Part shown: positions 11,096 through 49,727 of the stretch, piece by piece | How the letters are laid out: every line of letters starts with the position of its first letter | How positions within the stretch are numbered: the first letter of the stretch is position 1 | Source: an uncultured Thermoprotei archaeon | GTDB lineage: Archaea; Thermoproteota; Thermoprotei; Thermofilales; B15-G2 | Assembly: GCA_965367815.1 (NCBI GenBank) | Contig: CBDUKN010000007.1 | Span: 22,076 to 86,075, forward strand | Length of the DNA: 64,000 nucleotides | Direction: 5' to 3' | Notes under the pieces: model-generated | Told to the model about the DNA's origin: nothing | The model's database searches: none | The model's input: the letters and a program-made list of their open reading frames with translations, nothing else | Made by a program: the position numbers and the translations under genes

Positions 11096-11112
11096 GAATC
11101 AGTATACTTGGT

Positions 11113-28726: not shown

Positions 28727-30510
28727 TGCATAGAGCACTGTGGATGGAGCCTGTGAAAGGAGAACATAAAATACCTCTTAAGGTTCTTTTAAAAAGGCTA
28801 GCTAAATTACTGGCTCCGTATAAGTGGGTTCTCTTAGGAGTCTTCGTCGTAACTATTCTGTGCGCTTTAATAGGGCTTGTTCAACCCTATTTAATTAAAG
28901 TCGCCATAGACAGCGGAATAAGTAAAGGCAATATGGAAGTGCTACTGAAGGCTTCAGCTTTATATCTGCTGGCAGTTGTGTCGCTCTGGGCTTTCGACTC
29001 AATAAGATCTTATTATTTCGAGTGGATAGGAAATAGATTTGTATACGACTTAAGAGAAAAATTATTCAATCACATGGTAGGCCTATCTCACAGCTTTTTC
29101 GCGAAATCTCGTGTAGGAGACCTTATAGCCCGTGTAATGAGCGACTGTGCCAGAGTAAGAGACGTTTTCATAAGTGGACTAGTAGCTGTAGCCGGCGACA
29201 TTGTAAGCCTAGCAGGCGCACTAATCATAATGTTCATACTAAACGTTGAGCTAACACTAGTTACGCTCACAATTATTCCCGCTATGATTATTGCAGCCTA
29301 CTTGTTTACAACTAGATTTAGGAGAGTCTTCATGAAAGTTAGGGAAAAAACTTCGGAGCTCACAACTAAAGTACAAGAAAGTGTCTCGGGTATACGTGAA
29401 ATACAGGCTTTTGCTAAAGAAAAAAGAAGTCTAAGAGAGTTCTGTAAAGTCAGTGAAGAGGCTCTCGAAGCTAGAATAGAGGCTACAAAAACATTTTCTC
29501 TTTTTCTGCCGCTAATGAACATTATAATCACAATAGGCTCGGCTCTAGTAATATGGTACGGCGGACTAATGGTTGTAGCAGGCAGAACTACTGTAGGAGT
29601 ACTAGTAGCGTTTATAACCTATACATCTAGGTTCTTCAGGCCAATATTTACACTAGTATCAATGTACAATATAGTCCAAGAGGCGCTTGTCGCTTTAGAG
29701 AGAGTATTTGAGGTAATGGACGTTAAACCCGAAGTAGTCGACAAACCTGGAGCACTAGAACTAAAAGAAGTCAAAGGACATATAGTATTTGAAGACGTAT
29801 GGTTCTCCTACGACAAAAAGACTCCTGTACTTAAAGGAGTGAGCTTTGAAGTCAGGCCTGGAGAAAAACTAGCGATAATTGGTCCTACTGGAGCAGGAAA
29901 AACAACAATTGTATATCTTCTCTGCAGGTTCTACGACCCCGATAAAGGGAGAGTTCTCGTAGATGGACACGACTTGAGAAATGTTAAGCAGAAGTCTCTA
30001 AGAAAATTCATAGGCTATGTTCCGCAAGACACTATACTTTTTCCAGGAACAGTAAAAGATAATATTAAAGTAAGTAAACCGGAGGCAAGCGACGAAGAAG
30101 TAGTAGAAGTATGCAAGAAGCTCGGAATACACCACATAATAGAAAAGCTTCCTCAAGGATACGATACAGACATAGGTGAATTCGGTAAAAGACTTTCAGC
30201 AGGCCAAAAACAGCTAATATCAATAGCTAGAGCACTTCTCAAGGATCCTCCGATACTGATACTAGACGAGGCAATGTCTAACGTCGATCCAGCTACAGAA
30301 AGCATAGTTAAGAGAGCTCTAGATATTCTGATGAAAAACAGAACTACTATAATAATAGCACATAGACTTACTCTAGCCAGAGACGCCGATAAAATAATAG
30401 TAATTCAAGATGGCAGAATAATAGAAGAAGGCAGTCACGCCGGATTAATGGCGAAGAAAGGAGTATATTACAGACTTTATACAGCACAAATGGGAATAGC
30501 TGCTAAATAA
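28726..30510 (+). CDS. ABC exporter half-transporter (TMD-NBD), consensus-site subunit
   Basis: Walker A is GPTGAGKT, Walker B is ILILDE and the H-loop is 'IIAHR'. The signature is weakened to LSAGQKQ. The start overlaps the upstream stop (TAATG). Confidence 0.9.
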   Translation: MHRALWMEPVKGEHKIPLKVLLKRLAKLLAPYKWVLLGVFVVTILCALIGLVQPYLIKVAIDSGISKGNMEVLLKASALYLLAVVSLWAFDSIRSYYFEWIGNRFVYDLREKLFNHMVGLSHSFFAKSRVGDLIARVMSDCARVRDVFISGLVAVAGDIVSLAGALIIMFILNVELTLVTLTIIPAMIIAAYLFTTRFRRVFMKVREKTSELTTKVQESVSGIREIQAFAKEKRSLREFCKVSEEALEARIEATKTFSLFLPLMNIIITIGSALVIWYGGLMVVAGRTTVGVLVAFITYTSRFFRPIFTLVSMYNIVQEALVALERVFEVMDVKPEVVDKPGALELKEVKGHIVFEDVWFSYDKKTPVLKGVSFEVRPGEKLAIIGPTGAGKTTIVYLLCRFYDPDKGRVLVDGHDLRNVKQKSLRKFIGYVPQDTILFPGTVKDNIKVSKPEASDEEVVEVCKKLGIHHIIEKLPQGYDTDIGEFGKRLSAGQKQLISIARALLKDPPILILDEAMSNVDPATESIVKRALDILMKNRTTIIIAHRLTLARDADKIIVIQDGRIIEEGSHAGLMAKKGVYYRLYTAQMGIAAK

Positions 30511-34516: not shown

Positions 34517-35830
34517 GTGTACAAGAAAATAGTATTCTTCATACTCACACTTATTTCCTCGTTTGTAATAATGTATAGCGTAGTATCGAAGTGTCCTCTA
34601 CTGCCCGGCATAGACGGTCCCTACTACTTAGTTCAGACAAATTATCTCTTAAAGTACTTTAAGCTAAAATACATGGATCCTCCTTTGGCTTTCTTTATTC
34701 TAGCTTTCTTCAGATTGTTTATAAGCGACCCCTTTGTAGCGCTTAAAGTAGGAATAACAGTAATTACGTCAAATATAGCAGCCACTATTTTCCTTTACTC
34801 AGATTACTTCACTAAAGACGAAATACAGGCTTTCTTAATTTCGCTTATATTTGTCTTAAACAGCACTACATTTAGACTGCTGCAAGACTTCTGGAAAAAC
34901 ATAACTGGCTTCATTTGGATAGTTCTGTCGCTGTATTTTACTGCAAGAGGGGTAAACGAGAACAACAGAAAGTACTGTATCTTAGCCTCACTATTCATAG
35001 TGCTGACCTATTTAACACATATACTTGACGCAGGAACCATTACCTTGATCTATCTATTTACACCATTTTTTCTTCTAATACACTCTACTAAAAGTGTTAA
35101 GAAAGTATGGGTTCAGGTAGCTACAGCAGCATTAATGCTTGCAGCAGCTTTCGCAGCGCCAATAATTGTCGGAGGAGATATAGCCAAAGGAGTAGCCTTT
35201 ATTGAAGACTTACTGGAGCTAGAGAAAGAGGTAGAAGAATTTCCGCCTATTATTGCTGTAAGGTGGTCGTTTACAGGACTTCTCTTCGGTGCAGCCTGCT
35301 TAATCTTTTCAATATACTATATTAAAAGAAAGCCTGTGTGCAGTATACTGGGAGCAATAGGTGTAGCTTTAATAGCGCTAAATTTACCTTTCATTGAAAG
35401 AGGCTGGCTATGGAGATTTCAGTTAATGAATGGACTTCTCATAACTTTAGCTCTTCCAGTAATTTTAGCGGAAATCGAAGACAAGACCGCTAAAATAGCT
35501 ATACTTCTTCTAATTCTAGGCTTTGTTGTATACGACTCTGCCTACTACTTCGACAGAGGACTCCGTATGAGCATATCTTTAGCTGAATACGCTGAAATAA
35601 AGCTTCTTGTGAAAAAGCTCCCTCCAGGCGCAACTCTAGTAGTACCTAATACTAAGCTAAGGTACTGGATTGAAACATTTTGCGAAAATGTAGTTAGACA
35701 GCCGACAGGAGCTGAGGGAAAGCTTATTCTAGTAATTGAGAAAAGAGTAGTGCACAAAAGACCTCCTTGGCCTGTGTTTTTCAGAGGAAAATTTATTGAA
35801 GCATACATTATATTGAAAAAGAGACCTTAA
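34517..35830 (+). CDS. Polytopic membrane protein (GT-C-glycosyltransferase-like topology; function uncertain)
   Basis: The 437-aa protein has about 11-13 hydrophobic segments and a soluble C-terminal ~90 aa. It is the first gene of a tightly spaced operon. Confidence 0.45.
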   Translation: MYKKIVFFILTLISSFVIMYSVVSKCPLLPGIDGPYYLVQTNYLLKYFKLKYMDPPLAFFILAFFRLFISDPFVALKVGITVITSNIAATIFLYSDYFTKDEIQAFLISLIFVLNSTTFRLLQDFWKNITGFIWIVLSLYFTARGVNENNRKYCILASLFIVLTYLTHILDAGTITLIYLFTPFFLLIHSTKSVKKVWVQVATAALMLAAAFAAPIIVGGDIAKGVAFIEDLLELEKEVEEFPPIIAVRWSFTGLLFGAACLIFSIYYIKRKPVCSILGAIGVALIALNLPFIERGWLWRFQLMNGLLITLALPVILAEIEDKTAKIAILLLILGFVVYDSAYYFDRGLRMSISLAEYAEIKLLVKKLPPGATLVVPNTKLRYWIETFCENVVRQPTGAEGKLILVIEKRVVHKRPPWPVFFRGKFIEAYIILKKRP

Positions 35831-35885: not shown

Positions 35886-38800
35886 ATGCTTAAAGGGAAA
35901 TTATTAGCTTTCATACTAGGATTAACTCTAATATCAGCGGCTCTGCTAGCGCCTATTTCAGCTGTACCAATGTTTACCATAAGAGGATATGTTAAAACAT
36001 GGAAAGGAGAGCCTCACACCAATACTATAGTCGTGGCATTCGATATAGCAAACTACGAAGTAAGAGGAGTGACTAAAACAAATGCTAGCGGATACTTTGA
36101 AATTACAGTACCGAGAGGCTATAAGTACGTAGTATTTATTCTGCCGCTCAACGCTAATGGAACAGCTCTAAGCCATGTACCAGAAATAGCCGACTTACAT
36201 TCATTTGAAGACTTAGTTGAAGTCACTATAAACTTCAAGGCATACCCAGCAGCATTTGTTAAAGTCTACGGAACAATACACTATGTTGGGGGAGATTGGC
36301 TCGAAATATTTTCACTTAAAGTACTAGATACAAGCGGAACAAGGATATCTGAAGTACTAGACGCAGGTAAAGCAGTATACTCAAGAGAGTTCGTGGGTAA
36401 AGGTGAAGTAAAAGTATCTCTTGTCGACGAATATGGCACAGCGTCAAGTTTCCTCGTATACTATGAAGTAGGAGTAAGGAGAGGAAAACTGCCTGCAGGT
36501 CTAGCCGATAAAAGCATAGCTATAGTTCCTGCAGAAAAACCAGTTATAGTTGAGTTCACGACAAGCATAATAGATAACCGTAAGCCACCGTTCCTTAGAG
36601 AACCAATACACAGAGTAAAATTCACTATAGGAGATCCACTCAACCCGCTAACACTAAAACCCGGAGAAAAAGTATTATTTGATATCGAGAAAGAGTCCTT
36701 GAAGAGAATTATCCAGGAAGTTAGAAGAGACGTCGATATAGCTGAATCACTCATAGAAGAAATGGAGCGAATGGGCTTCTACCTAGCTCCAGAGAGAGCA
36801 GACTTAGCTAAAGCTATAGCGCTAATAGAAGAAGCAAAGCTCGCCTATGAGCAGAACCAGCCAGTAGAGCAGATAATAGAGAAGCTTGAGAGAGCATACG
36901 TTATAGCGACACAAGTAGTAGCTGGACGAGTATTTTTCCTCAAAACAGTTGCTTTAGAGGGAGCGCCTCTTCTCTCATACTTCATAGCACTCTTCGCAGC
37001 AGTAATGGCCTACTACTTCTTCGAAGACCCCAAGAAAAAACTATACTCGTTCATAGCGTTCTTCGCAGCCTTCATGATAATATTCGCGCTATCTTACCCA
37101 GGATTCCCACTACTATGGAACAACAGAAGAGACCTCTTCCTAATCTCAGTATCTACAGCCTTCTTCGGAGTACTCTTCTTACTATTCTACTTACCCATCA
37201 AAATAAAGGAAGCAGAGCTCCCAGGAACATTCAGAAGAGGAGCAATACTGGCAGTAACATTCTCACTTGCAAAGAGATTCTCTAGACTCAAGAAAACTAG
37301 AACAGGTATAGTAGTGTTCTCTCTAGCGGCTCTAATCTGGGCGTTTACAGTACTAGCATCTATTTCAACAGTATACGGCATATGGAGCGCTGAAGTACCT
37401 TCAGTAACCAAGGTAAACGCGCTAGTGGTAAAGCACTTAATAAATGAGACAACTATAAGTTCACTAGGCTATTTCTCTGACTACCAGTGGTTCGTCCAGC
37501 AGCTAGGCAACGATAGTGTATCAGTAGTAGTCTATAACGATCCGACAATTAAGCTAACTATACTCATTACTTCACCTGAAGGAAAATCTGTTGAAGTCAA
37601 AGCCTTCATGGGAGTCTCAGAGATAGAAGACAAAATTACAGGCATATCAAAAATAATAGTTGAAGGAGACTGGTCAAAAGTAGAGGAAAAGAACTCTGTC
37701 TTCTTACCTTCAACTCTAGCTGAGAAGCTTGGAGTGAAAGTAGGAGATGTAGTTAAAATAGAAGTATATAGGCCGGGAGTAGAAATACCTGTATCAGAAA
37801 AATACGTTGTCGCAGGAATATTTGATGAACTGTCTCTAGACAGAATAAAAGATATCGATGGAACACCGCTTAAACCACTAGTTCTAGTGAAAGGAGGCTT
37901 TGCTCCAGCAAACTCAACAGACATAATTATTGGCAACTGGGAGTACTTACTCAAAGAAGTTCTCCTTGAAGAGAAAGCACTATTCTCAACAGTATTTAAG
38001 ATATACAGAATAGCTGCAGTAGGGTCATCAGATGTACTGAAGAGCGTAGCCAGAAGATATATTGAAAGAAAAGGTGAAGGCTACTATGTTTACGTAAATA
38101 CTGAAGGCAAGTGCTACAAACTTTTCTTCGGACAGAAAGTAGAAAACATCTTAATGAGAAACGTTGACTTCATAATACCAATAGCAATAGTAATCTCGGT
38201 AGTACTTGTATCAATGTACAGTATAGTAGAGGAAAGAAGAAGAGAAATATTTATCTTCAACGCTATAGGCTTCAATCCAATGCACATAGCCTTCCTATTC
38301 TTAGCGGAGTCAATAGTCTACGGACTCATATCAGGAGGCCTAGGATACATAGCTGGAATAGTCACCTTCAGAGTAATGGCAACATACTTCTCGTCACTAA
38401 ACCTCCTAGTAAGAGAAAAGCTAGAGTGGTACTGGAGCATCATAGCAATATTTATCTCAATACTAGTAGCCATGATCGCTTCCTTCAAGCCAGCACTCAA
38501 AGCAGCCATGATGTACACTCCATCAAGAGTACGCAGAGTAAAGGCCACTGAGGCAGAAAAACTCAAACGCGAAGAAAAAATCCTAGTAACCTACGTAGGC
38601 AAGAGGTATCTACTATCAGCTAAAATCAAGGAAGATGAGGCCGTAATATTCTTCTCGTTTATATACTCAAGGCTCAAGGACATGGAGTCAGGATACACTG
38701 AGAGAGTAGAAGATCTGCAGGAATATGATGAAGAAGAGCTTCCCGACGGAACACTAGTAAAGAGATTCACCTTCAAGTGCGTGCTCTTAGTTGAAGGAGA

Positions 38801-38996
38801 GCGCGTAGTCATAGACAACGACTTGAGGTGCACAAAGAGTTCTAAAGAGAAGTTCTATAGAGTAGAGCTCTACGCGAAGCCTCATGGCGAAAAAGAAATC
38901 CCGCTGAGGTACCTTGATAGAGTAGCCTCAATGATCAACGATATACTCAAGTCATGGGAAGAAGAAAGAAAGAGGCTGCTGTCGTCGCGCCGATAA
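35886..38996 (+). CDS. Secreted-domain / FtsX-MacB-type permease fusion protein (P1)
   Basis: It has a signal peptide, a CarboxypepD_reg-like domain (RGYVKT..TNASGYFEITVPRG) and a 3-TM bundle. Next come MacB-type TM1, a periplasmic-domain motif 'LPSTLAEKLGVKVGDVVKIEV' and the FtsX core 'EERRREIFIFNAIGFNPMHIAFLFLAESIVYGLISGGLGY'. It ends in a ~170-aa cytoplasmic tail. SD GAGGTG lies upstream. Confidence 0.75.
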   Translation: MLKGKLLAFILGLTLISAALLAPISAVPMFTIRGYVKTWKGEPHTNTIVVAFDIANYEVRGVTKTNASGYFEITVPRGYKYVVFILPLNANGTALSHVPEIADLHSFEDLVEVTINFKAYPAAFVKVYGTIHYVGGDWLEIFSLKVLDTSGTRISEVLDAGKAVYSREFVGKGEVKVSLVDEYGTASSFLVYYEVGVRRGKLPAGLADKSIAIVPAEKPVIVEFTTSIIDNRKPPFLREPIHRVKFTIGDPLNPLTLKPGEKVLFDIEKESLKRIIQEVRRDVDIAESLIEEMERMGFYLAPERADLAKAIALIEEAKLAYEQNQPVEQIIEKLERAYVIATQVVAGRVFFLKTVALEGAPLLSYFIALFAAVMAYYFFEDPKKKLYSFIAFFAAFMIIFALSYPGFPLLWNNRRDLFLISVSTAFFGVLFLLFYLPIKIKEAELPGTFRRGAILAVTFSLAKRFSRLKKTRTGIVVFSLAALIWAFTVLASISTVYGIWSAEVPSVTKVNALVVKHLINETTISSLGYFSDYQWFVQQLGNDSVSVVVYNDPTIKLTILITSPEGKSVEVKAFMGVSEIEDKITGISKIIVEGDWSKVEEKNSVFLPSTLAEKLGVKVGDVVKIEVYRPGVEIPVSEKYVVAGIFDELSLDRIKDIDGTPLKPLVLVKGGFAPANSTDIIIGNWEYLLKEVLLEEKALFSTVFKIYRIAAVGSSDVLKSVARRYIERKGEGYYVYVNTEGKCYKLFFGQKVENILMRNVDFIIPIAIVISVVLVSMYSIVEERRREIFIFNAIGFNPMHIAFLFLAESIVYGLISGGLGYIAGIVTFRVMATYFSSLNLLVREKLEWYWSIIAIFISILVAMIASFKPALKAAMMYTPSRVRRVKATEAEKLKREEKILVTYVGKRYLLSAKIKEDEAVIFFSFIYSRLKDMESGYTERVEDLQEYDEEELPDGTLVKRFTFKCVLLVEGERVVIDNDLRCTKSSKEKFYRVELYAKPHGEKEIPLRYLDRVASMINDILKSWEEERKRLLSSRR

Positions 38997-38997
38997 A

Positions 38998-40584
38998 ATG
39001 TTAAGTAAATATTTGGACAAAGAATTTTTGTTAACTTTATTTATTCTAATTATTTTGCTTATAGAAATAATAGCATTATTTATACTACCTAGCTTTAAAG
39101 TAAAAAAGTTAACTAGAGAAGAATACTTAGCGAAAGCTATTGAAGCCTACGAGTGGATGATGCAGTTCCAGATAACTCCTCCCGGCACTCCATGGGGATG
39201 GCACCTGAACTGCAGAGACGCATGGGGAGGACTAGCAGGCTACTACACCAGACACTGCAAGTGGGCAGCAGTGTACGGTGCTGAAAGCTTCTATCAGCTC
39301 TACATAGCCTCACACGACGTAGGCTGGTTCTTGGAACTCGGAGTAGACCTATATAATATAACCGGCGAAGAAAAGTACCTTAAAGCTACTGAACTAGCAG
39401 CACAGTGGGCTCTCAGAATACAAGTAGGGTACAGTTCTTGGCTTAAAAAATTCGAAAAGCGCTACATTATGCCTCAAAAAAGTGAACGCAGTGTTAGCTG
39501 GAGATACGTTCCTGGTATAAAGTTTTCTAATGAGGTCATTGGAGCATACACTGAAGGAATGTTTGTTTTCAGCGGCGAACCACCATATCTTCATGATTGG
39601 AGTGAAGGAGTATGCTACGCTGAGCCAGCACTTTGGGTTGCGCCCGAGCATGTCATACCTATAGCTAAAGGTTTACTAAAACTATACTTAGCAACAAAGA
39701 ATAAAACATACTTAATGTCAGCTATGAGGGCACTCGACTTTATAGCTAGAATGCAGTCTCCTGAAGGCGGTATATACACGTGTTATCCTCCGAATGCCTA
39801 CGGAATTAGAATGAGTGATACAGCTAGTGCAGCTGAACTTTTCCTTTATGCCTACATAGTGGTAGGAAACAAAACTTATCTCGAAAGAGGACTTAAGGCA
39901 TGTGACTTCATGATAAGCAAGCAAGTAGCTTACGGCAGGTGGAGAGGAGTGCTGCCTCACTTGTCTACAGCTGGAGGTTCTTGGAGAAAACACAGTTATT
40001 TTACAGGCGACGCTGCTGAGGCTATTATAGCCTGGTTAAAAGCATATGAGCTTACGGGTGAATATAAGTATCTGGAGGCGGCTGTAAGAGCAGCTTACTT
40101 TCTTCTTAGAATGCAGGAAACAGACGCCAGTAAGCCTTGGGGTACTAAGATATATTCATGGGATAAGCGTGCAGTAGGAGGATTCTACTGGGCCTATGTG
40201 CCAGGCTACGGCATCTTGGAATACCAATTTGTTTCATCAACTACGTCAGCCGCCATAGCTTTACTCAAATTATACACTGTAGTCGAAGAACCTATTTTCT
40301 TAGAAAGCGTGAACTTGGCTTTAAAATGGCTTCTCGAGACAGAAATATATTCTCCTTCAAACACATACTTAGATCTTCCCGGCTTAACCGTAGTAAGCGA
40401 TCCTCACGGACTTTATAAAAGCGGATATGTCCCACTATACGGTAAGTATTACGATGAAATCCCCGGAACAATGACAGGAGACCCCGAGCAAGGCTTCTGT
40501 GTAGCAATGGCTGCCTCCGGTCCCTGCTACCTCTTCCTTGAAATATACAGATTATACCATAAAGTATATAATCAGCAGAAGTAG
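38998..40584 (+). CDS. Membrane-anchored extracellular alpha/alpha-toroid (prenyltransferase/terpene-cyclase-like repeat) protein
   Basis: It has an N-terminal TM anchor, then repeated 'RMQ/KQ..G.W/Y' units (RMQSPEGGIY, SKQVAYGRW, RMQETDASKPW). Its start is 1 nt after the upstream stop. Confidence 0.45.
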   Translation: MLSKYLDKEFLLTLFILIILLIEIIALFILPSFKVKKLTREEYLAKAIEAYEWMMQFQITPPGTPWGWHLNCRDAWGGLAGYYTRHCKWAAVYGAESFYQLYIASHDVGWFLELGVDLYNITGEEKYLKATELAAQWALRIQVGYSSWLKKFEKRYIMPQKSERSVSWRYVPGIKFSNEVIGAYTEGMFVFSGEPPYLHDWSEGVCYAEPALWVAPEHVIPIAKGLLKLYLATKNKTYLMSAMRALDFIARMQSPEGGIYTCYPPNAYGIRMSDTASAAELFLYAYIVVGNKTYLERGLKACDFMISKQVAYGRWRGVLPHLSTAGGSWRKHSYFTGDAAEAIIAWLKAYELTGEYKYLEAAVRAAYFLLRMQETDASKPWGTKIYSWDKRAVGGFYWAYVPGYGILEYQFVSSTTSAAIALLKLYTVVEEPIFLESVNLALKWLLETEIYSPSNTYLDLPGLTVVSDPHGLYKSGYVPLYGKYYDEIPGTMTGDPEQGFCVAMAASGPCYLFLEIYRLYHKVYNQQK

Positions 40585-40591
40585 GAGGTAG

Positions 40592-42445
40592 ATGTATATG
40601 TTTGATAAAGCTTTTCAGTTGGCAATAATGATTTTCTCGAGCTTAATGATGGCACAGCTTTTCTCTAGAACTTTATTCGAAAAAGAGTTTTACAGAAAAG
40701 TAAACTTCCTGTTAATATTTCTTGTATCAGTCTTACTCATGTATAAAATAGAGCCAATGCCCTTCGAACTAGCTCTTTCGCTTATAGTGCCGCCCTTTAG
40801 ACTAGAGTACTTAATGACTTTTATTCTAGCGTTTATACCCTTCCTTATTCCTTTAGCTATACTATTTTCACGCGGCGAAACGTGGCTACTCGCAGAGATA
40901 GTCGTACGTTTTCTTAGAAGAAGGCGCCTTAGAACACTATTAAATGTAATGACAGTAGCCTTAGTACTCTCGGTACTAACCTCGGTTGCCGCTATATCGC
41001 CGCTAAAATCATTTTATGTAATGAAAATAGCACAGACACCAGCAGAGCTAAAAGAGCTGTGCAAGCACCACCACGTATACATATTGCTCTATAAGGAATA
41101 TACCTGGATTGCATCTACTGAGGCAAGTATACAGAAGGAAGAAATGAAGTCGCTGACACTGGAAGTGAAAACAGGCTTCTTGTCACTTTTCAGCAAACCT
41201 GAAGCAGTAATAGACTTCATGTACACTGAAGGCCTAGCTGACGGGAAAAAAGTTCAAATTCTCATAACCGATACTAACACTTTACAAGAGATCTTTCCAT
41301 CAAATTTAATATTAAAAAAATTAAATGAAAAAACACTAGCTTACGCCAATTCATATACTTTAATAAATACTACAATCAAAATAAACAGTATTGATCGCGA
41401 ATTTAAGCCCAGCGGATTATTTAATTTAACAGAAGTGAAAATAACAAGAGACATAGCTATTCTAACAAAAACTCCTTCAATCTTAATCGACATTAAAGCA
41501 CTTAAACCAGAAGAGATTTTAAACCTCGTAGATGCAGGAGCCTTAAAGTACGTAGTTGTCGCAGTAAATCATGCTGTTAGCAAATCGAATCTAGAAAAAT
41601 TCATTAAGTTATTTTCAAGTGAAGCGAGCTACCAAGAAAAAGCTCTTGTATACACACCACTAGTATTGCAAATAGATGAAAATAACGTAATGATGTATTT
41701 CACTATAGGCACATACTACATGTTTTCAGGCGAAATAGGGTACTTGTTCTTTGCAGCACTATCAATTTTCCTACTCCTATTTTCAACAATTCTAGGAACT
41801 GTATATGAGAGAAGCAAAGAGTACTCCATCCTAGCCTGTCTAGGGGCAACTCCTAGTAAAATATACCTTGTCATGTTCCTTGAAGGAGCCTACCTAGCCT
41901 CCCTTGGAGGAGTACTCTCAATGTTTATTGCATATCCTATAATAAGGGAAGGGATATCAGCTTACTACAAATCAAACTTGCCTTCAATATTCTTTCTGTC
42001 ACTAGGCACAAGCTACCTAGCAACAATAGCCTCATATTTAGCTCTAAGAATTAAAGGAATACGTGAAGTTACTCCAAGCCGCGTAATAAAATACACTGCG
42101 GAAAGAAAGAAAACAGGGGGAGAATTCGAAGTACCCATAAAAATTCACGACTGGAGTAGTTTCAAGCATTTCCTCAAAGAAATCGAAGGAAAAAACGTTG
42201 AACCAGGAATAAAAGTACTAAAGGTATCCGAGGAAAACGGAAATCTAAAAGCACTAGTCGCATGTGGTATAGATAGAGAAGCCCTATACATGTTTACATT
42301 AATTTATTCAGGAGAATCTGTAAAAATCAGGGTTGCAGGCGAAAGAACATGGACAGCTGAGCACTCCAGATTATATGACCTCGCTGTAAGAAGCTTTAGA
42401 AAACTAGCCTTAAGATACTCACTCAAAGAAAAATTAAACAAGTAA
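40592..42445 (+). CDS. FtsX-MacB-type permease-like protein without ectodomain fusion (P2)
   Basis: It has an N-terminal TM bundle, 'RRRRLRTLLNVMTVALVL' (TM1), a ~240-aa extracytoplasmic domain and the FtsX core 'YERSKEYSILACLGATPSKIYLVMFLEGAYLASLGGVLS'. It ends in a ~130-aa tail. SD GGAGGT lies upstream. Confidence 0.7.
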   Translation: MYMFDKAFQLAIMIFSSLMMAQLFSRTLFEKEFYRKVNFLLIFLVSVLLMYKIEPMPFELALSLIVPPFRLEYLMTFILAFIPFLIPLAILFSRGETWLLAEIVVRFLRRRRLRTLLNVMTVALVLSVLTSVAAISPLKSFYVMKIAQTPAELKELCKHHHVYILLYKEYTWIASTEASIQKEEMKSLTLEVKTGFLSLFSKPEAVIDFMYTEGLADGKKVQILITDTNTLQEIFPSNLILKKLNEKTLAYANSYTLINTTIKINSIDREFKPSGLFNLTEVKITRDIAILTKTPSILIDIKALKPEEILNLVDAGALKYVVVAVNHAVSKSNLEKFIKLFSSEASYQEKALVYTPLVLQIDENNVMMYFTIGTYYMFSGEIGYLFFAALSIFLLLFSTILGTVYERSKEYSILACLGATPSKIYLVMFLEGAYLASLGGVLSMFIAYPIIREGISAYYKSNLPSIFFLSLGTSYLATIASYLALRIKGIREVTPSRVIKYTAERKKTGGEFEVPIKIHDWSSFKHFLKEIEGKNVEPGIKVLKVSEENGNLKALVACGIDREALYMFTLIYSGESVKIRVAGERTWTAEHSRLYDLAVRSFRKLALRYSLKEKLNK

Positions 42446-42765
42446 ATACTGCACACATTACCGTCCAAGAAAGCAATAATTTTAGTTCAATTAACTTTAA
42501 ATTTATCTTTCCTGTAGCCAATCAATCTTTAACACACTACTATAAAATTAGTACTAATTTCGGCAGCAATATTCCTATTTTTTGCTCATAACTACCTTTA
42601 CGTTCTTATAAAAAGACTTTATTAAAGCAGTCTTAAACTAAATGCGTTAATAACTAAACATATGGCTCCTAGCAACAATTTTCATAAAACCCTTACGACA
42701 CGTTATGACCCTGAGAAGAAATTTGACAAAGGTAAAAAATACTGACGGTTCATATATCTTTTTCG

Positions 42766-42781
42766 GAAAGCCTTAAATAAT
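42766..42781 (+). promoter_or_regulatory. BRE/TATA promoter for 42831..44858
   Basis: 'gaaagccttaaataat' combines purine-rich BRE-like bases with a TATA-like box ~55 nt upstream of the ATG. Confidence 0.35.
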
Positions 42782-42830
42782 TTTGTTTTTCTAGTTAAAA
42801 CAGCATTTGATACATATTGAGGGATAGAAT

Positions 42831-44858
42831 ATGGTGGAGGAGACGAAAGTAAAAGAAGTAGAGGCTCTAAAAGTACTCAAATCACCGCGCCTCATAATCC
42901 TCTGGATTATAATTCTACTAGTATTCATCCCCTATCAAGCATTCAGACTCTATGGATGTTACGGCAACGGAACATCGTTCATGAGCCTAGTGCTCTTACT
43001 AACAGCTATAATCGGCTTATTTAGCAAGAAGTTTAAGCTATCACCTCAAGAAGCAACAATAGCCTTTGCCATAGCGACAGTAGCAGCTGATATCTCAATC
43101 TATACAGCTTTCTACGATAATCCACTATCAGGCATACCCTTCATTAACCTATATGGCGGACCAAACCTCGATAAAGTAAAGCAGTGGATACCTTCATGGA
43201 TGTTTATACCTACAGAAGTACTAGAGCCTGCCAGAAATGGTGGAGCAATGCTCCCACTAGGGCCGCTCTTACCAGTACTAGCTTTCTTAACAATATTCTT
43301 AATAGCACTCAAGTTGCTACAGCTAGCCACAGCAGGCATTATTGCAAGACAGTTTGTAGAAATAGAGCGCCTTCCATTCCCAGCCTTCATGCCAAGCCTC
43401 TACGTAATCAAATACTATTCCGAAGAAGTAGGAAAGAAGCCTAGACTACTATCATGGAAAGGCAACACTCCGTTCTGGCTGGGCTTCATCATAGGATTTC
43501 TAATAGATGCTATAGCTATTATGGAAGTATTTAGCGAAGCTGTCACAGGAAAAACCTACATACAGCTTCCTGCAAGCACAGGATTCATAGGACAGTTCGT
43601 AGTTGATCTAAGGTTCCTAGAACCGTACTTGCCGGGCGCAATGCTGTACTGGTATCCAGGACTAGACTTCGGTTTCTTCCCAGTCGCTCTCTTCTTGCCA
43701 TTAGATGTAATGGCTACGGCAATTCTATGGTTCTTCCTATGGTATATCTTCTATCCAGCAACAGTTAATATCCTTGGAATATATCCGACAAAAGTTACCG
43801 CAGGACAGCTAGGAGGAGGTGCTGTAGGAGCATGGCCATTTACATGGGTTGGTCAGATAGCAGTCCCATTTGCATTAGGCCTCTATCCACTAATATTTAG
43901 CTGGAGGTACTTCAGAGACTTCTTCAGAAAAGCTTTTAAGAGAACAGACCTCAATCCATCGCTCCCAGAAACTCTGCCAGTCTACACGGGTATTGTAGCT
44001 TTCATAATATTGCTAGCTCTGCTAGCGACTATAGGCATGCCAATAGTGCTAGCGTTTCTCTGGCTAATAGTTCTGACAATCTGTTGGACAGGTATGGCTA
44101 GAGTAGCAGGCGAATACTTCACTCAGCCACTGGCCTGGGCGTGGGGAGACCTCTACAGAGGATTCATGGGCTTCTCTCAGACAGTCATGGGCTGGCCTAA
44201 CCCCTATCCATCTAAAGAAGCATGGGGCACTATGATGGGCATGAGGCTGACTTACAATACTGTAGAAAGAGAGGTAGACAGCACATGGGGCTTCTTAGGC
44301 TGGTACAGGGTAGCGAGAGACACTAACACAAGCTGGAAAGCAGTCTATATAGCCCAGCTCGTAGCGGTAATTATTGGGGTAATTCTTGCCTGGCCAGCTA
44401 TCTACGGTCTAGCCTACTACAGAGGTCTTGAGGTAGGCTGGAACGGATACTTTACAGCTACATCCATCAGATACGCTGCTAGAAGATTTGTGGACTACGG
44501 TCTAGCAGGAACAGTAAATGCTATTAGTCCATGGAACATGCTAAAGATCGGATGGCTCTTTGGAGGCATCGTAATGGTCTTTGCTATAATGTGGCTTAGA
44601 CTCAGATTCCCATGGTTCTTCCTCAACCCAGTAGGTATGCTATGGCAACACCCATGGTGGCTTGGTGCAACTATGCTAGCTTTCGTTATAAAGTACATCG
44701 TTATCAAGGTGGGCGGTGCACAGGCTAATGAGAAATACTTAATACCCTTCGCTACCGGCTGGGCTTTCGGATCAGCTATAGGTGGACTAGTGACATACTG
44801 GCCCGAAAACATTTATAGAGCGTTCTTCAACAGACTCTTCCCGTACTTCTGGTGGTAA
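42831..44858 (+). CDS. Polytopic membrane protein, OPT/YSL-superfamily-like (Q1)
   Basis: The 675-aa protein has about 14-16 TM segments. 'EIERLPFPAF' aligns with 'EIEKLPFPIG' of the paralogue 49730..51664 and recalls the OPT/YSL 'KLTYPSGTATA' loop. Confidence 0.5.
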   Translation: MVEETKVKEVEALKVLKSPRLIILWIIILLVFIPYQAFRLYGCYGNGTSFMSLVLLLTAIIGLFSKKFKLSPQEATIAFAIATVAADISIYTAFYDNPLSGIPFINLYGGPNLDKVKQWIPSWMFIPTEVLEPARNGGAMLPLGPLLPVLAFLTIFLIALKLLQLATAGIIARQFVEIERLPFPAFMPSLYVIKYYSEEVGKKPRLLSWKGNTPFWLGFIIGFLIDAIAIMEVFSEAVTGKTYIQLPASTGFIGQFVVDLRFLEPYLPGAMLYWYPGLDFGFFPVALFLPLDVMATAILWFFLWYIFYPATVNILGIYPTKVTAGQLGGGAVGAWPFTWVGQIAVPFALGLYPLIFSWRYFRDFFRKAFKRTDLNPSLPETLPVYTGIVAFIILLALLATIGMPIVLAFLWLIVLTICWTGMARVAGEYFTQPLAWAWGDLYRGFMGFSQTVMGWPNPYPSKEAWGTMMGMRLTYNTVEREVDSTWGFLGWYRVARDTNTSWKAVYIAQLVAVIIGVILAWPAIYGLAYYRGLEVGWNGYFTATSIRYAARRFVDYGLAGTVNAISPWNMLKIGWLFGGIVMVFAIMWLRLRFPWFFLNPVGMLWQHPWWLGATMLAFVIKYIVIKVGGAQANEKYLIPFATGWAFGSAIGGLVTYWPENIYRAFFNRLFPYFWW

Positions 44859-44877
44859 ACTAGAAATAGTTTAACAA

Positions 44878-44894
44878 TTTTTTATTTTATTTTT
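44878..44894 (+). terminator. T-tract terminator
   Basis: 'tttttttattttatttt' begins 20 nt after the stop at 44858. Archaeal termination occurs at oligo-T tracts. Confidence 0.45.
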
Positions 44895-45096
44895 AATGTG
44901 TTTTAAATAGTTAGAGTCTTCTTATGCTGTATATGCCTTAATTGAGGCGTAGGAAGTATCCTTTACTACAAGTTCTCGTTATGGTTATGTCTAGTACTAG
45001 GTAAACCGGGAGTCATAATATGGAAGCTTAGCTGACACAATTTTAACAATTATTGGGTTATCTCTATTGAAAAATCTTTTATAAGAACATAAATTA

Positions 45097-45109
45097 GGTT
45101 TATATAGCC
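45097..45109 (+). promoter_or_regulatory. TATA box for 45129..51664
   Basis: 'ggtttatatagcc' is centred ~26 nt upstream of ATG 45129 (leaderless geometry). Confidence 0.4.
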
Positions 45110-45128
45110 AAAGGTTTACTGTTAATTG

Positions 45129-48100
45129 ATGGTGATAAATTCAAAGAAAGCTTTTACACTAATATTCATTATAGTTCTGAGTGTAGTGATTGCCACGGTA
45201 CCTGAAGCAACTGTTTCTCGCAGAGAAACAATTAACTGGGAGGATCTTGAAGCATTCTTAAAGAACTTCAATTACTCCAAGGTTCTCAAACATATCGAAT
45301 ATTTTGGCTCGCTTGATAGTCGCTTGACAGGGTATCCCGGTGCCTGGGAAGCTCTACGCTATATATATTCAGAGCTGGAGCTCTATGGGTACGACTTAGT
45401 CTATTTCCAGAATTTCACCACAGTTGTTCCAGTAGTGCGAGAAGCTTACATTGAAGTTAAGAGCGGCGAGACTGTCAGCAAGTTTAAAGTATACCCTGTT
45501 TGGCCTAATCTTGTTCAAACATCTCCTACTGGACCCGAAGGTATCTCGGGGAAGTTGCTCTACTTAGGTAAAGGGGACTTAGAGAGCATCAAGGGAATAG
45601 ACATAAAAGATGCTATTGTTCTCCTGGATTATAACAGCGGAGACAATTGGGTGAAGTTAGCCGAGCTAGGAGCAAGAGCTGTAATTTTCATAGAGCCTTT
45701 ATCAACCAACAGATTCGAGTCTTTCAATAAATTTGTCTACGTAAATCTTTATTTCCCTAGAGTCTATGTTGACAGAAAGACTGGTATCGAACTAAAAAAA
45801 CTGTGTGAAAAAGATGCCGCTACAGCTAGGCTTATTCTAGATTACTCGATGGAAGAGGTTGTTTCAGCGAATGTAGTTGCTTTCCTGAAAGGAAAAGGCA
45901 GCACTAATGATTCTCTTGTTTTAGCAGCATATATTGACGATTGGTCTCCTGTACCCGAGCTCGCTAGCCACTATGATAGCGCCTGCGGTGCAGCAGTCTT
46001 ACTCGAAGTAGCACGCTTACTAGCTAAAAGTAAGCCAGAACTCAACGTCATTGTAGTATTCTTTACGGGTCACTGGGAAGGTTTATGCGGACCTAGAGCT
46101 TTCGTAGAAGAGGTACTCGAAGTTTTTGCTGACCGCACATTGCAGAACCATCCAATATGGAACCAAAGTGTTCCTAAAACATTTCTTTCATTGGATTTAT
46201 CTACTGGTAGCAGTAGTGTTGCCCTACTCCACTCAGGCGGATTTTATCACGTAGCAGGTCCCAGTATTTTTGAAGAATGCGTAGACATGTTCAGGGGAAT
46301 GGATTTCCTTCTAAGAGAGTATGGTAGGAGTAACAGGCTAGCTGACTTAGTCAAAAAATACTCAGGCAGGGCTCCTGAAATATATTACCAGCTTATAGAT
46401 CAATCTGGAGGCGCTTACGTGGAGGCTGGTGAGCTAGAATACTTTACTCCTGTGCCCTACAAGTACATCGCTGATGTAGAGCCATGGCTTCAAGCGGGAC
46501 TACCAGGCTATACGCTCTTTACTGCTTTCGACTACAGGTTTACATGGTTCACTCCTCTTAAAGAACGAGTACACTTTAACCCGGATAACCTTAAGCCTCA
46601 AGCATACTATGTTGCAGCACTATCTTACATTTACTCCAACGTCGTAACAAGTGATTACCCACCGAGGAGAGTATGGGGCCCGACTCGCTACTATTTCCCA
46701 GGACCCTTCGCCCCATTTGTTCCGGGCTTCACTAAGATGAGAGGTCAAGTCGTAGTATATTTGCCTATTTCGCCTAGACAGTATGAGCCGCTAATGAATG
46801 AAACTATAGTAGCTATAGTGGATTCAGAGGATCAATACAATATTTTCAACTATATTTTCTTAAAAACAAAGCCTAATGGAACTTTTGTTGTCCATGGTCT
46901 AGCCATAGATAGAGGAGGGGGAGCAAGAACTTATATGGCTAGGCTCTACGTAATTGACTATAAGAACAAGGGAAGAATTCTCTATACAAATGATTACGGC
47001 AAATATGGTGCTGAAGCAATATACACTACGAGAACGTTCAGTGTGAGAGAAGGAGTCTATGGATGGCCGCAGCCTTTGCGTTTCGTCGTATTCAAGTGTG
47101 CCAGCATAACTATGTTTAGTGTAACTTTTCCTCAAGGAATGCTTGACTTATACAACTACATGAGTATATACAAGACTCTTCAAGCCCGAGATGTTTCAGT
47201 AATAGTTAGAGAATTTACATCTCACTCAGAGGTATATCACTATGGTTATGAAGTAGACCCTATGTCTAGGATACTAGTTGTCTATGTCAAGCCTGAAGAG
47301 AGAATAGAAATAGAAGTACACGTTAGGTCTCAGGAAGGGCCAATCTACTTAACAATTCTACTTTTAAATGCTTCTGAAAAATACCCGGAGGGTGCTGGTT
47401 ACTATCTTAATGAGCCGGGAGAATCTCTGGTTTTATTAAAGTCTACTTTGCACTACGTCGAGAACTTCTACTGGCTAAGTAGATATAGAATAGACTTGGC
47501 TGCGAGGTTCGGTGTCTTTGACGCGGAGTCTCAGAGAAGTTTGAGGATGCTTGAAGAGTGGCGTAATTTAACTAAAAAGTATTTAGAGGAAAAAGATTAT
47601 AGTAAAGCCTACTATGCTTCGCTAATCGCTTGGGCTTGGGCACAAAAGCTCTATTACTCGTCGAGAGGGCTTATTCAAGGCTCATCTACAACTACTGTAG
47701 TCTACTTCGTTATGTTGATCCCATTTGCTTTCGTGCTAGAGAGACTTTTATTTGAGTTTTACGAGGGCAGAAAAAGACTCTTAACAATAGCGTGTATCTT
47801 TGCAATATTTATTGTCTTGATGTGGCTTAACCATCCAGGTTTCCATTTAGTAGCGAGTATGCCTACACTGTTGCTAGGCTTCGTTATACTAACTATTTCG
47901 GTAGTAATAGGTTTCCTACTCTACACAGATTTCCAAGGCGTAATGTGGAGAGTAAGGAAAAAGACTCTTGGAGTACACTTCGTAGAAGTGAGTAGATGGG
48001 ATGTCATGGTTTCGTCGCTTTACTATGGTGTAGTAAATATGAAGAGGCACAAGGTTACTTCGCTTCTTACTCTGACAGCAATAGTCATCATAACAATGTC

Positions 48101-49727
48101 GCTAATATCACTTACATCAATTACGACGCATACTGTTCTAAAAACATTGAGTATTACTGCTGAGCCTAGTTATACAGGGCTTTTAGCTAGGTATGTCTCT
48201 TATGATACCTTGCCGGAATCGTTTGTGGAGTGCCTAAAGGTGTTAAGTGAAGAAGAAGTAGCTAGACGTGCCTGGCTTTATGGGCCTATTGAAGGATCGA
48301 CTCTATGGGGAGAAATACCTGTAGAGTATGAGGGTAAGAAAGAAACTGTAAGAGCTATAGTAGGCTTAGATGAAGTAGACGGTAAGGTCTTAGGCATAGA
48401 AGCCGCTACTATTTATAGAAGATGGAGTGAGCTTTTCCGCGAAATATCGCCCGACGTAATATCTTGTATAATAAACCGTAAGCTCGCAGAATTCCTTGGC
48501 ATAAAGTCTGTGCCTGCGAAAGTAAAAATATGGGGCATTGACTTTATAGTAGTCGATATATTTGATCCAGCTGCACTCGGTGGAGTAAGAGATATTGATA
48601 ATGAGCCTATAGCTCCTTTCAATATATGGTCTACTGAAGCAGGGGCATCTGGCATCGTTGTTACAGAGAGGCTTCAGTGGGATACTATTATAATTATTCC
48701 CTACAGTGTCTTAGAAAAGTTCCCTGGCTCTATAAGAGCGAGCACAGCTGTTGTAGGCGAAGACTACACGAAACTAGATAAGTTTGCCAGAATACTCGCG
48801 GAAATGACCTATAACATGTATCTCTTTGTCTCTGACGGAAAGAAAGTGAAAGGATATGTTTCGTTAGTAGGTCTCGCTGCTAGAGGATGGTCATTCTTAC
48901 TACCGGCTATAGTTATAGCTTCGCTTATAATGTTCAATATGATGATTTCTCTAGTACAGCAAAGAACAAATGAAGTTAAAACTCTTTCAGCTCTAGGTCT
49001 TGCTCCACTACATGTTGTTGGCCTCTTCTTCTCTGAAGCTATAGCCTATGCGCTCATAGGAGGAGTAATAGGATATACTACCGGTATATTTGTACTCAAG
49101 GCTTTGACACCACTAATGGGCCCCGGCTTCTATCCCAATTACACTTCAGGTGCAGTAGTGTTAGCGATAGCACTTTCATTTGTCACTGTAATAGTACCCT
49201 CAATTATTCCTGCCTTCAGAATGGGTGCTCTCGTAACACCATCGCTTGAAAGAAAATGGAAGATTACTACTAAACCTAGAGGAGATATATGGGAAATTCC
49301 TACGCCGTTTAGAGCAACTAAGGTAGAAGCTCCCGGCGTGCTTCTTTATGTTAAAGAGTTTCTCGATGCTCATAGAACAGAAAGAGCCCATAGATGGTTT
49401 GCTTCACTTGAAGAAGCTAAAATAACCTCATTTGAAATGGAGGGTAAAAAAGGCTATGCGCTTAAAACTAGAGTAATGCTCTATCCATGGGAGGCTGGAC
49501 TAAAACAGGAAGTTGAAATAGCTGCGTTACCAGAAGACGGTATTTCTCGATTCACTGTAGCGCTGCGCCTCGAGTCAGGGCCAAGAGAAGTCTGGATACG
49601 TTCCAACAAGGCGTTCCTAGATATCCTTAGGAAGCAGTTCTTATTATGGAGAAGTATTGTTCCTTCTGAGAGAAGAGAATACGTTAAGAAGGCTTTAGAT
49701 CTTGTGGGCTTGAAGGAGGGTGAGTAG
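45129..49727 (+). CDS. PA/M28-like ectodomain fused to an FtsX-MacB-type permease (P3)
   Basis: It has a signal anchor and a PA domain (GKLLYLGKGD..AELGARAVIFIEP). The M28-like core has altered ligands (AAYIDDW, HYDSACG, TGHWEG). Next come a TM bundle, 'NMKRHKVTSLLTLTAIV' (TM1) and the FtsX core 'QQRTNEVKTLSALGLAPLHVVGLFFSEAIAYALIGGVIGY'. It ends in a ~200-aa tail. I prefer ATG 45129 over the listed TTG 45126. Confidence 0.75.
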   Translation: MVINSKKAFTLIFIIVLSVVIATVPEATVSRRETINWEDLEAFLKNFNYSKVLKHIEYFGSLDSRLTGYPGAWEALRYIYSELELYGYDLVYFQNFTTVVPVVREAYIEVKSGETVSKFKVYPVWPNLVQTSPTGPEGISGKLLYLGKGDLESIKGIDIKDAIVLLDYNSGDNWVKLAELGARAVIFIEPLSTNRFESFNKFVYVNLYFPRVYVDRKTGIELKKLCEKDAATARLILDYSMEEVVSANVVAFLKGKGSTNDSLVLAAYIDDWSPVPELASHYDSACGAAVLLEVARLLAKSKPELNVIVVFFTGHWEGLCGPRAFVEEVLEVFADRTLQNHPIWNQSVPKTFLSLDLSTGSSSVALLHSGGFYHVAGPSIFEECVDMFRGMDFLLREYGRSNRLADLVKKYSGRAPEIYYQLIDQSGGAYVEAGELEYFTPVPYKYIADVEPWLQAGLPGYTLFTAFDYRFTWFTPLKERVHFNPDNLKPQAYYVAALSYIYSNVVTSDYPPRRVWGPTRYYFPGPFAPFVPGFTKMRGQVVVYLPISPRQYEPLMNETIVAIVDSEDQYNIFNYIFLKTKPNGTFVVHGLAIDRGGGARTYMARLYVIDYKNKGRILYTNDYGKYGAEAIYTTRTFSVREGVYGWPQPLRFVVFKCASITMFSVTFPQGMLDLYNYMSIYKTLQARDVSVIVREFTSHSEVYHYGYEVDPMSRILVVYVKPEERIEIEVHVRSQEGPIYLTILLLNASEKYPEGAGYYLNEPGESLVLLKSTLHYVENFYWLSRYRIDLAARFGVFDAESQRSLRMLEEWRNLTKKYLEEKDYSKAYYASLIAWAWAQKLYYSSRGLIQGSSTTTVVYFVMLIPFAFVLERLLFEFYEGRKRLLTIACIFAIFIVLMWLNHPGFHLVASMPTLLLGFVILTISVVIGFLLYTDFQGVMWRVRKKTLGVHFVEVSRWDVMVSSLYYGVVNMKRHKVTSLLTLTAIVIITMSLISLTSITTHTVLKTLSITAEPSYTGLLARYVSYDTLPESFVECLKVLSEEEVARRAWLYGPIEGSTLWGEIPVEYEGKKETVRAIVGLDEVDGKVLGIEAATIYRRWSELFREISPDVISCIINRKLAEFLGIKSVPAKVKIWGIDFIVVDIFDPAALGGVRDIDNEPIAPFNIWSTEAGASGIVVTERLQWDTIIIIPYSVLEKFPGSIRASTAVVGEDYTKLDKFARILAEMTYNMYLFVSDGKKVKGYVSLVGLAARGWSFLLPAIVIASLIMFNMMISLVQQRTNEVKTLSALGLAPLHVVGLFFSEAIAYALIGGVIGYTTGIFVLKALTPLMGPGFYPNYTSGAVVLAIALSFVTVIVPSIIPAFRMGALVTPSLERKWKITTKPRGDIWEIPTPFRATKVEAPGVLLYVKEFLDAHRTERAHRWFASLEEAKITSFEMEGKKGYALKTRVMLYPWEAGLKQEVEIAALPEDGISRFTVALRLESGPREVWIRSNKAFLDILRKQFLLWRSIVPSERREYVKKALDLVGLKEGE

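Follow-up and report, generated by a model that had tools for sequence, protein, structure and literature searches.

How can a permease of the FtsX type act outside the cell when no ATPase is encoded beside it, and what is the domain that it carries beyond its last membrane helix? The question is raised by a row of six tightly packed, same-strand genes, recognized from open reading frames (ORFs) and Pfam matches, in a 64-kb stretch of DNA (the window) from an uncultured Thermoprotei archaeon (GenBank assembly GCA_965367815.1, contig CBDUKN010000007.1, positions 22,076 to 86,075 of the forward strand). The genes encode, in order, P1, an (alpha/alpha)6-like protein, P2, P4, P3, and P6. Machines with the FtsX/MacB fold pass the movement of a cytoplasmic ATPase to work on the outside, for example lipoprotein extraction, efflux, or activation of cell-wall hydrolases, and in canonical FtsX-family systems the nucleotide-binding domain (NBD) is fused to the permease or encoded next to it. 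An earlier note on this DNA had described P1, P2, and P3 as FtsX-like proteins with an extra N-terminal transmembrane (TM) bundle, a shared C-terminal cytoplasmic domain (the tail), and no NBD, and had proposed that the tail is either a different coupling or energizing surface or a sign that the family signals rather than transports. The best explanation of our results is that P1, P2, and P3 belong, as paralogues, to a single large, uncharacterized family with the FtsX/MacB fold (type VII ATP-binding cassette [ABC]-like), in which the tail may serve as a platform at the cytoplasmic face.

All three proteins exceeded the Pfam gathering threshold for FtsX (25.5 bits), with 43.7 bits for P1 (amino acids [aa] 765 to 874), 28.0 bits for P2, and 42.9 bits for P3, which bears out their FtsX-like identity. 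P1 additionally gave partial matches to LolC/E-like models of NCBIfam, and relatives in two of the loci surveyed below (L019 and L063) matched MacB_PCD. A full-length AlphaFold model of P2 (pLDDT, 81.9; pTM, 0.69) placed TM1 at aa 112 to 133, an alpha/beta domain at aa 138 to 375, and three helices at aa 381 to 488, and it resembled the structures of MacB, HrtB, LolC/E, YbbP, BceB, and FtsX with a Foldseek probability of 1.0. No Walker A motif ([AG]x4GK[ST]) was found in P1, P2, or P3, in agreement with the earlier note. Ahead of FtsX TM1, hydropathy and the P2 model place three TM helices and then an amphipathic helix (aa 95 to 110 of P2, followed directly by TM1). This bundle was indeed common to the three proteins: the P1-like and P3-like bundle profiles were homologous (hhalign, 96.9%; E value, 1.5e-10), the P2 bundle matched that of the P3-like proteins more weakly (E value, 5.5e-4), and a full-length model of the PADLOC collection covered the bundle in all three. 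With three additional TM helices the N terminus would lie outside the cell, which agrees with the large domains that follow the signal anchor on that side in P1 and P3. The family architecture is an optional extracytoplasmic enzyme-like domain, three extra TM helices, an FtsX core with its own extracytoplasmic domain, and a cytoplasmic tail of about 150 aa.

The tail begins with the motif TPS[RL] directly past TM4, at aa 878 in P1, 494 in P2, and 1371 in P3. All sequence strings quoted in the earlier note were found where it had placed them; the tail lengths were not as given there, since, counted from the T of TPS, they measured 124 to 163 aa and not 130 to 200 aa. Pairwise BLASTP among the three tails gave nothing significant. 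Profile comparison of 9 P1-like with 112 P3-like tails, on the other hand, gave an hhalign probability of 97.4% and an E value of 1.5e-11 over 142 columns, and the match persisted when the junction motif was removed (96.6%; E value, 5e-10). This alignment matched up the very strands and helices that had been named from single sequences, and by these profiles the P1-like and P3-like tails are homologous. The position of P2 was different. A profile of three P2 tails aligned collinearly with the P3-like tails over 102 columns with an E value of only 0.013; the P2 tail carries the near-invariant family columns G583 and R603, and its RKLALRY resembles the family RKQLLLW. P2 is a divergent, lineage-restricted paralogue, for which only two orthologues were found. 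Thus, the claim that the tails share one order of elements stands for P1 and P3, whereas for P2 the sequence match is weak and the same order was seen in the AlphaFold model. Among the top 150 family representatives (see below), the junction reads VTPSLERKWKI in P3-like or YTPSKVRRIK in P1-like proteins, and the tails span 145 to 170 aa.

The site at which the tail begins is informative about what it may be. In the alignment of P3 with Escherichia coli MacB (648 residues), which pairs PAfrm with PARNA, the last TM helix could be followed to MacB residue 636, 12 residues short of the C terminus. MacB ends in ..RLDPVDALARE, a segment that forms the minor coupling helix touching the NBD, and the family VTPSLERKW falls within one residue of the position of this C-terminal segment. 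From this alignment position, the tail appears to extend the protein beyond the C-terminal contact point of canonical permeases and not to be an insertion behind a novel linker. The TPS junction is therefore probably not a new linker, as it sits at the site of the ..DPV..ALR minor coupling helix of MacB. The results also support the tail as a conserved cytoplasmic module, one that is missing from canonical FtsX, MacB, and LolC and that belongs to the architecture of the whole family.

To place the three proteins, a profile of their shared core (alignment A1) was searched exhaustively against 1.84 billion cluster representatives (50%-identity clusters), which yielded 17,245 matches, 929 of these clusters being matched at E values of ≤1e-30. 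In nearly all of the best 150 representatives the match began in the TM bundle and ran through the whole tail, and the P3-like architecture was the commonest among them. Scanning one genome per species confirmed at least 563 loci, in Thermoproteota and several bacterial phyla, and the counts of neighboring genes given here refer to the best 80 of these (47 archaeal and 33 bacterial). The archaeal loci come from Bathyarchaeia, Thermofilaceae, Desulfurococcales, Brockarchaeota, and Nitrososphaerota and the bacterial ones from Armatimonadota/Fervidibacter, Latescibacterota, Poribacteria, and Desantisbacteria. The tail followed an FtsX core in 79 of the 80 loci, the sole exception being a contig too short to show the core. 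Conservation was measured in 82 P3-like representatives, each from a different 50%-identity cluster. No other 15-residue segment of the protein of about 1,500 aa was as conserved as the junction, VTPSLERKWKITTKP (0.80). Next among the non-enzyme parts were the C-terminal helix of the tail (0.69) and the TM2-TM3 coupling loop (0.66). Lower values were obtained for the extracytoplasmic domain (0.35) and for the central part of the tail (0.38). Given the conservation of the junction, coupling loop, and C-terminal helix, the cytoplasmic face is the most constrained surface of the protein, which points to a conserved interface there. One family member of 823 aa (P0102) carries a further appended module, a short zinc-ribbon-like extension (VKCPHCGERF) past the tail.

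Within the window, no gene for an NBD of the LolD/MacB type was found, and the only ABC ATPase domains are those of two self-contained type I exporters with fused transmembrane domain and NBD (positions 26993 to 30510), 5 kb upstream. Among the 80 loci, a gene for a LolD/MJ0796-type NBD was present in 8, comprising 1 of the 47 archaeal loci, in which it is convergent on the opposite strand, and 7 of the 33 bacterial loci; the remaining 72 had no LolD-type NBD within about 8 kb. In four of the bacterial loci (L048, L049, L050, and L080), the NBD gene comes last in a series encoding an unknown 300-aa protein, a PqqD-like protein, and a small FtsX permease of 240 aa, and it may serve that small permease. 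In L045 and L074 (Poribacteria) the NBD is present while the small permease is absent, and no other permease is encoded nearby. In L063 (Desantisbacteria) the NBD gene comes first in one operon, followed by DUF6785, P3-like, and P6-like genes. The absence of an NBD that the earlier note had stressed thus holds for P1 to P3 and, as a LolD/MacB-type gene, for the window, but not for the family at large. At the level of gene linkage, the lack of an NBD is true of this window and of almost all archaeal relatives and is not a family rule.

A separate observation concerns the bacterial cassette that follows the P3-like and P6-like genes. This cassette encodes an unknown protein of 300 to 344 aa, a PqqD-like protein (RiPP-recognition-element-like), sometimes the 240-aa FtsX permease, and the LolD-type ATPase; it is followed by an aminotransferase gene and occurs in several phyla. 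It was seen in L048 (11461 to 14183), L074 (10964 to 13361), L045, L049, L050, and L080 and partially in L042, L071, and L085.

The genes that do adjoin the tail-bearing proteins encode polytopic membrane proteins, represented in the window by P4 and P6. A P6-like gene was present in 65 of the 80 loci (43 archaeal and 22 bacterial) and lay directly downstream in 52 (30 archaeal and 22 bacterial). A P4-like DUF6785 gene was detected by tblastn in 28 of the archaeal loci and in none of the bacterial loci; the latter count is an underestimate, because Pfam finds DUF6785 in the bacterial locus L063. The P6-like and DUF6785 (P4) families are homologous (hhalign, 99.9%; E value, 1.4e-35; 583 columns), and P6 and P4 have the motif EIExLPFP in common. 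P6 itself had no Pfam match. Its orthologue in L034 (tblastn E value, 2e-59) matched Pfam OPT with 58.1 bits against a gathering score of 25.8 (E value, 9e-16). On the basis of the P6-like/DUF6785 homology and this OPT match, we regard the partners as polytopic proteins resembling the OPT superfamily.

What the tail looks like was approached by modeling. An AlphaFold2 model of the P3 tail built with 70 homologues (pLDDT, 93.5; pTM, 0.88) predicted an antiparallel alpha+beta domain. In tail numbering, it consists of a strand (18 to 28), a helix (32 to 45), a short strand (55 to 57), four long antiparallel strands (62 to 68, 71 to 82, 89 to 100, and 103 to 114), a long helix (117 to 140), and a last helix (143 to 156). 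The model of the P2 tail showed a strand at 515 to 517, a helix at 521 to 530, five strands within 535 to 582, and a helix at 585 to 616, with pLDDT values of about 70 to 85; since it leans on the family alignment, it is supportive and not independent. Most of the top 50 Foldseek matches of the P3 tail in the Protein Data Bank (PDB) were Bet v 1, PR-10, SRPBCC, and Aha1-C structures, with E values from 4.5e-4 and probabilities of up to 1.0; their TM-scores ranged from 0.24 to 0.43 and their root-mean-square deviations (RMSD) from 7.5 to 16 Å. Tentatively, the predicted fold is helix-grip-like; it is not Rossmann-like. No match to the three tails was found in Pfam (at E values of ≤10) or in NCBIfam, the tail profile had no match in the PDB, and 70 tails gave only scattered, chance-level matches and none to an SRPBCC family. 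The alternative that the tail is simply a known domain finds no backing in Pfam or PDB sequence searches, and the likeness to SRPBCC proteins is loose.

The family has been catalogued before, as is evident from matches in PADLOC. P1, P2, and P3 all matched PDLC01991 (CARF_m8--CARF_LolE_TM) and PDLC01990 (CARF_m8--CARF_Beta-galactosidase_LolE_TM), and the full-length family match had E values of 1.3e-100 for P1 (aa 284 to 1032), 9.7e-60 for P3, and 9.4e-20 for P2. The CARF_m8 names reportedly go back to the survey of CARF proteins by Makarova et al. (2020). The P1 tail corresponds to positions 552 to 687 of the 810 positions of PDLC01991, and P1 stops before the CARF segment (691 to 795). That segment was matched by a 1,131-aa P1-like protein of Bathyarchaeia (L019, positions 8162 to 11554), which has 126 additional aa past the tail with a CARF-like Rossmann domain (...DIVCISGTSAMACAAL...); the 126 aa alone matched positions 691 to 795 with an E value of 2.9e-23 and also weakly matched the CARF1, CARF3, and CARF4 models. 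The L019 cluster comprises P3-like, P6-like, P1-like plus CARF, and DUF6785 genes, much like that of the window. As the CARF segment of the model was matched only by this extension, CARF is an additional domain that may or may not follow the tail. It is absent from P1, P2, and P3, from the 18 atypical sequences among the top 150 whose C termini were inspected, and from four P1-like metagenome loci. A defense role is not indicated, and the defense label should not pass to the window proteins. The presence of CARF after the tail in some relatives lends some support to the idea of a regulatory input.

Taking these results together, we tentatively read the tail as a platform for coupling and regulation on the cytoplasmic side of an FtsX-like machine that mostly has no linked ATPase and is partnered by OPT-like proteins, and we give this somewhat less than an even chance. 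From the site of the minor coupling helix, the tail would fold back under the membrane, and with the TM2-TM3 coupling loop it would form a conserved cytoplasmic platform, which in canonical systems is clamped by the ATPase. Most likely, the platform would work without a dedicated ATPase in this archaeal lineage, holding or gating the conformation of the FtsX helices and hence the position of the extracytoplasmic domain. The extracytoplasmic part so positioned would be the M28-like domain in P3, the region with a beta-sandwich in P1, and, for P2, possibly the (alpha/alpha)6 protein encoded by its own gene. Together with P4 and P6, the three proteins would bind or process a substrate outside the cell and take it up. 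The CARF-bearing relatives suggest that a signal from the cytoplasm can also reach the outside domain through the platform. What the analysis shows is the homology of the tails, their predicted fold, the pattern of conservation, the linkage of the genes, and the lack of an NBD in the window; we infer the tail/coupling-loop contact, the ATP independence, the cooperation with OPT-like proteins, the substrate, and the direction of signaling. Several points weigh against this reading. The membership of P2 is weak, with poor sequence statistics and a model built from the family alignment; any contact of the tail with the coupling loop or a partner is something that we infer; and four P1-like metagenome loci have no OPT-like neighbor, so that the partner link is not universal across subfamilies. 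In addition, tail-bearing proteins coexist with a LolD-type NBD gene in eight loci, in one of which, L063, the NBD gene heads the cluster, and this coexistence means that an unlinked ATPase elsewhere in the genome is possible. A conserved coupling loop and a motif like the minor coupling helix would also be expected in a permease on which an NBD docks.

These last points would fit the main rival view, in which the proteins are type VII ABC permeases of the ordinary kind, with the gene for their LolD/MacB-type ATPase at another place in the genome, and the tail is an accessory domain, regulatory or for dimerization, that lies beside a docked NBD and does not replace it. The proteins in the NBD-bearing loci keep their tail, the gene order of L063 and the lack of any other permease near the NBD in L045 and L074 would fit, and the strong conservation of the coupling loop and of the junction is as this view predicts. 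We nevertheless consider it rather unlikely, since canonical FtsX-family NBDs are fused or adjacent, whereas here 72 of 80 loci and the entire window are without one, the single archaeal case is on the opposite strand, and in four of the eight positive loci the NBD directly follows a small FtsX permease of its own. At the other extreme, the proteins could form an FtsX/MacB-fold mechanotransmission machine, widespread in archaea and bacteria, with no ABC ATPase at all, in which the helix-grip-like domain replaces the NBD, the work or gating comes from the OPT-like transporter (through proton motive force or substrate) or from a cytoplasmic ligand (through CARF in some members), and substrate capture outside the cell by the fused enzyme-like domain is linked to uptake; we regard this strong form as improbable. 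Alternatively, the tail might be a ligand sensor with a putative helix-grip pocket of the Bet v 1/SRPBCC kind for a lipid or small hydrophobic molecule, in a family that signals and does not transport. The identity of the top Foldseek matches, the predicted topology of strand, helix, five strands, and long helix, and the appended CARF, another ligand sensor, would agree with such a function, which is nonetheless quite improbable: the best TM-scores were 0.31 to 0.43 at RMSDs of about 8 to 16 Å, neither the 70 tails nor the PDB profile search gave an SRPBCC sequence match, and the best-conserved residues lie in the junction and C-terminal helix, where they do not evidently line a cavity. The strong PADLOC matches of all three proteins, finally, could be taken to mean that the tail is itself a CARF domain, that is, a sensor of cyclic oligoadenylate, and that the proteins are CRISPR-linked or other defense effectors. 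This is extremely improbable, as the tail maps to a part of the model outside the CARF segment and its predicted sheet is antiparallel, in contrast to a Rossmann-like alpha/beta fold; CARF proteins were absent from the top 50 Foldseek matches, and no cas genes were seen among the window genes examined. Model positions and predicted fold together contradict a CARF identity, which we rejected.

The features of the gene row are listed in Table 1. Its whole order is kept in a "Thermoprotei archaeon" relative with 59% identity, including the position of the (alpha/alpha)6-like gene, whose product may be a separately encoded extracytoplasmic partner of P2. That protein has an N-terminal TM helix and weak Pfam matches to C5-epim_C, Pec_lyase, GH76, and GH127. 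The extracytoplasmic N-terminal region of P1 contains a beta-sandwich and gave a weak CarboxypepD_reg-like match. In the M28-like domain of P3, weak pairwise alignment sets AYIDDW against AHHDHW and TGHWEG against TAEEAG of a canonical PA-domain M28 peptidase that is encoded a few kb downstream of the cluster (59715 to 61388). These variant motifs are among the best-conserved segments family-wide (0.70 to 0.73). To judge from its sequence, the domain appears to be without the canonical metal and catalytic residues and may be a pseudopeptidase or have an altered metal site. P2 also has an exact match in NCBI assembly GCA_003649445.1 (contig QMRV01000011.1). The database record of P3 has 1,532 aa, one residue less than the ORF with its TTG start.

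Table 1. Features of the tail-bearing FtsX-like proteins and their gene row (positions in the window)
Feature	Position (nt)	Strand	Description
P1	35886..38996	+	1,036 aa; signal anchor, extracytoplasmic N-terminal region, 3-TM bundle, FtsX core, tail
P1 extra TM bundle	36900..37190	+	About aa 339-435, ahead of FtsX TM1; from hydropathy
P1 FtsX/MacB-type core	37308..38516	+	aa 475-877; TM1, extracytoplasmic domain, TM2-TM4
P1 cytoplasmic tail	38517..38993	+	159 aa from TPSRVRR
(alpha/alpha)6-barrel-like protein	38998..40584	+	528 aa; membrane anchored; packed tightly between P1 and P2
P2	40592..42445	+	617 aa; minimal version with TM bundle, FtsX core, and tail; no N-terminal extracytoplasmic domain
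P2 N-terminal TM bundle	40595..40870	+	Helices aa 2-28, 32-65, and 71-93 (AlphaFold model)
P2 cytoplasmic tail	42071..42442	+	124 aa from TPSRVIK
P4	42831..44858	+	Polytopic membrane protein; Pfam DUF6785 and DUF6784; OPT-superfamily-like
P3	45126..49727	+	1,533 aa; signal anchor, M28-like extracytoplasmic domain, 3-TM bundle, FtsX core, tail
P3 M28 peptidase-like domain	45870..46517	+	aa 249-464; Pfam M28, 42.9 bits; variant metal and catalytic motifs
P3 extra TM bundle	47682..47921	+	aa 853-932
P3 FtsX/MacB-type core	48066..49235	+	aa 981-1370; Pfam FtsX, aa 1256-1365
P3 cytoplasmic tail	49236..49724	+	163 aa from TPSLERKWKI
P6	49730..51664	+	644 aa; polytopic membrane protein, OPT/DUF6785-like; starts 3 nt past P3

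The surroundings of the row are rich in proteins resembling secreted or surface enzymes. Directly upstream of P1, positions 34517 to 35830 encode a 437-aa polytopic membrane protein matching PTPS_related (PF10131); the gene occupies the same place in the relative with 59% identity and may be part of the cluster. Positions 56993 to 58111 encode another (alpha/alpha)6-like protein, which weakly matches SQHop_cyclase_C and Pec_lyase. Farther upstream, a 257-aa ORF (23732 to 24505) matches OrfB_IS605 and the Cas12f1-like TNB domain and encodes a TnpB-like transposon-associated nuclease, possibly truncated.

What was known of these proteins is the FtsX core and a listing of the family in a computational census, under a name that fits only a minority of its members. 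No description of the tail domain, the three extra TM helices, or the pairing with OPT-like proteins was found in the literature, nor did we find a paper that pairs FtsX with "orphan permease," a paper that mentions DUF6785, or a relevant paper that links CARF with FtsX or LolE. If the ATP-free mechanism is true, there would be a second way to drive or gate the FtsX/MacB fold; if an unlinked ATPase is at work, the permease would have gained a new regulatory element in its tail. Either way, this domain is without annotation, is not in Pfam, and deserves a family definition. It also explains why proteins lacking CARF match a "CARF" defense model, which is a source of false defense-system calls. 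Bathyarchaeia, Thermofilaceae, and Armatimonadota, in which the family is abundant, are lineages known for the degradation of polymers and peptides, and it may therefore bear on nutrient acquisition there.

Of the known systems, the closest are MacB, LolC-LolE, FtsX, HrtB, and BceB (PF02687 with MacB_PCD). The family has in common with them the four-TM core, in which a large extracytoplasmic domain separates TM1 from TM2, the conserved cytoplasmic coupling loop between TM2 and TM3, and a C-terminal motif past TM4. It differs in its three extra N-terminal TM helices, in the roughly 150-aa cytoplasmic domain that follows TM4 (the canonical proteins stop within about 12 residues of that helix), and in its NBD, which is not fused and usually not adjacent, an OPT-like partner gene adjoining instead. 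FtsX-family permeases without an adjacent ATPase gene include ADOP ("Acidobacterial duplicated orphan permease"), which have two FtsX domains. Apart from this shared lack of an ATPase gene, the likeness consists of weak, partial matches to TIGR03434. With 20.6 to 32.2 bits against a cutoff of 622.3 and a single FtsX domain instead of two, membership in ADOP was rejected, and ADOP proteins are not known to have the tail, the extra TM bundle, or an OPT-like partner. With CARF_m8, P1 (and more weakly P3 and P2) shares the model from the coiled coil and TM bundle through the FtsX core, and P1 shares the tail as well, but the window proteins, like most relatives sampled, are without the C-terminal CARF-like domain behind that family name. 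The tail resembles Bet v 1, PR-10, and SRPBCC proteins (START-like, helix-grip) in size and in the order of strand, helix, antiparallel sheet, and long C-terminal helix; it differs in having fewer strands, in the low TM-scores of even the best matches, and in the lack of sequence-profile similarity, and the predicted resemblance may be only topological. The partner proteins are like the OPT family (PF03169), given a P6-like orthologue that exceeds its gathering score and P4 with its two DUF domains, although P6 had no Pfam match of its own. Lastly, the extracytoplasmic enzyme-like domain carried on the machine itself recalls FtsEX, which controls hydrolases.

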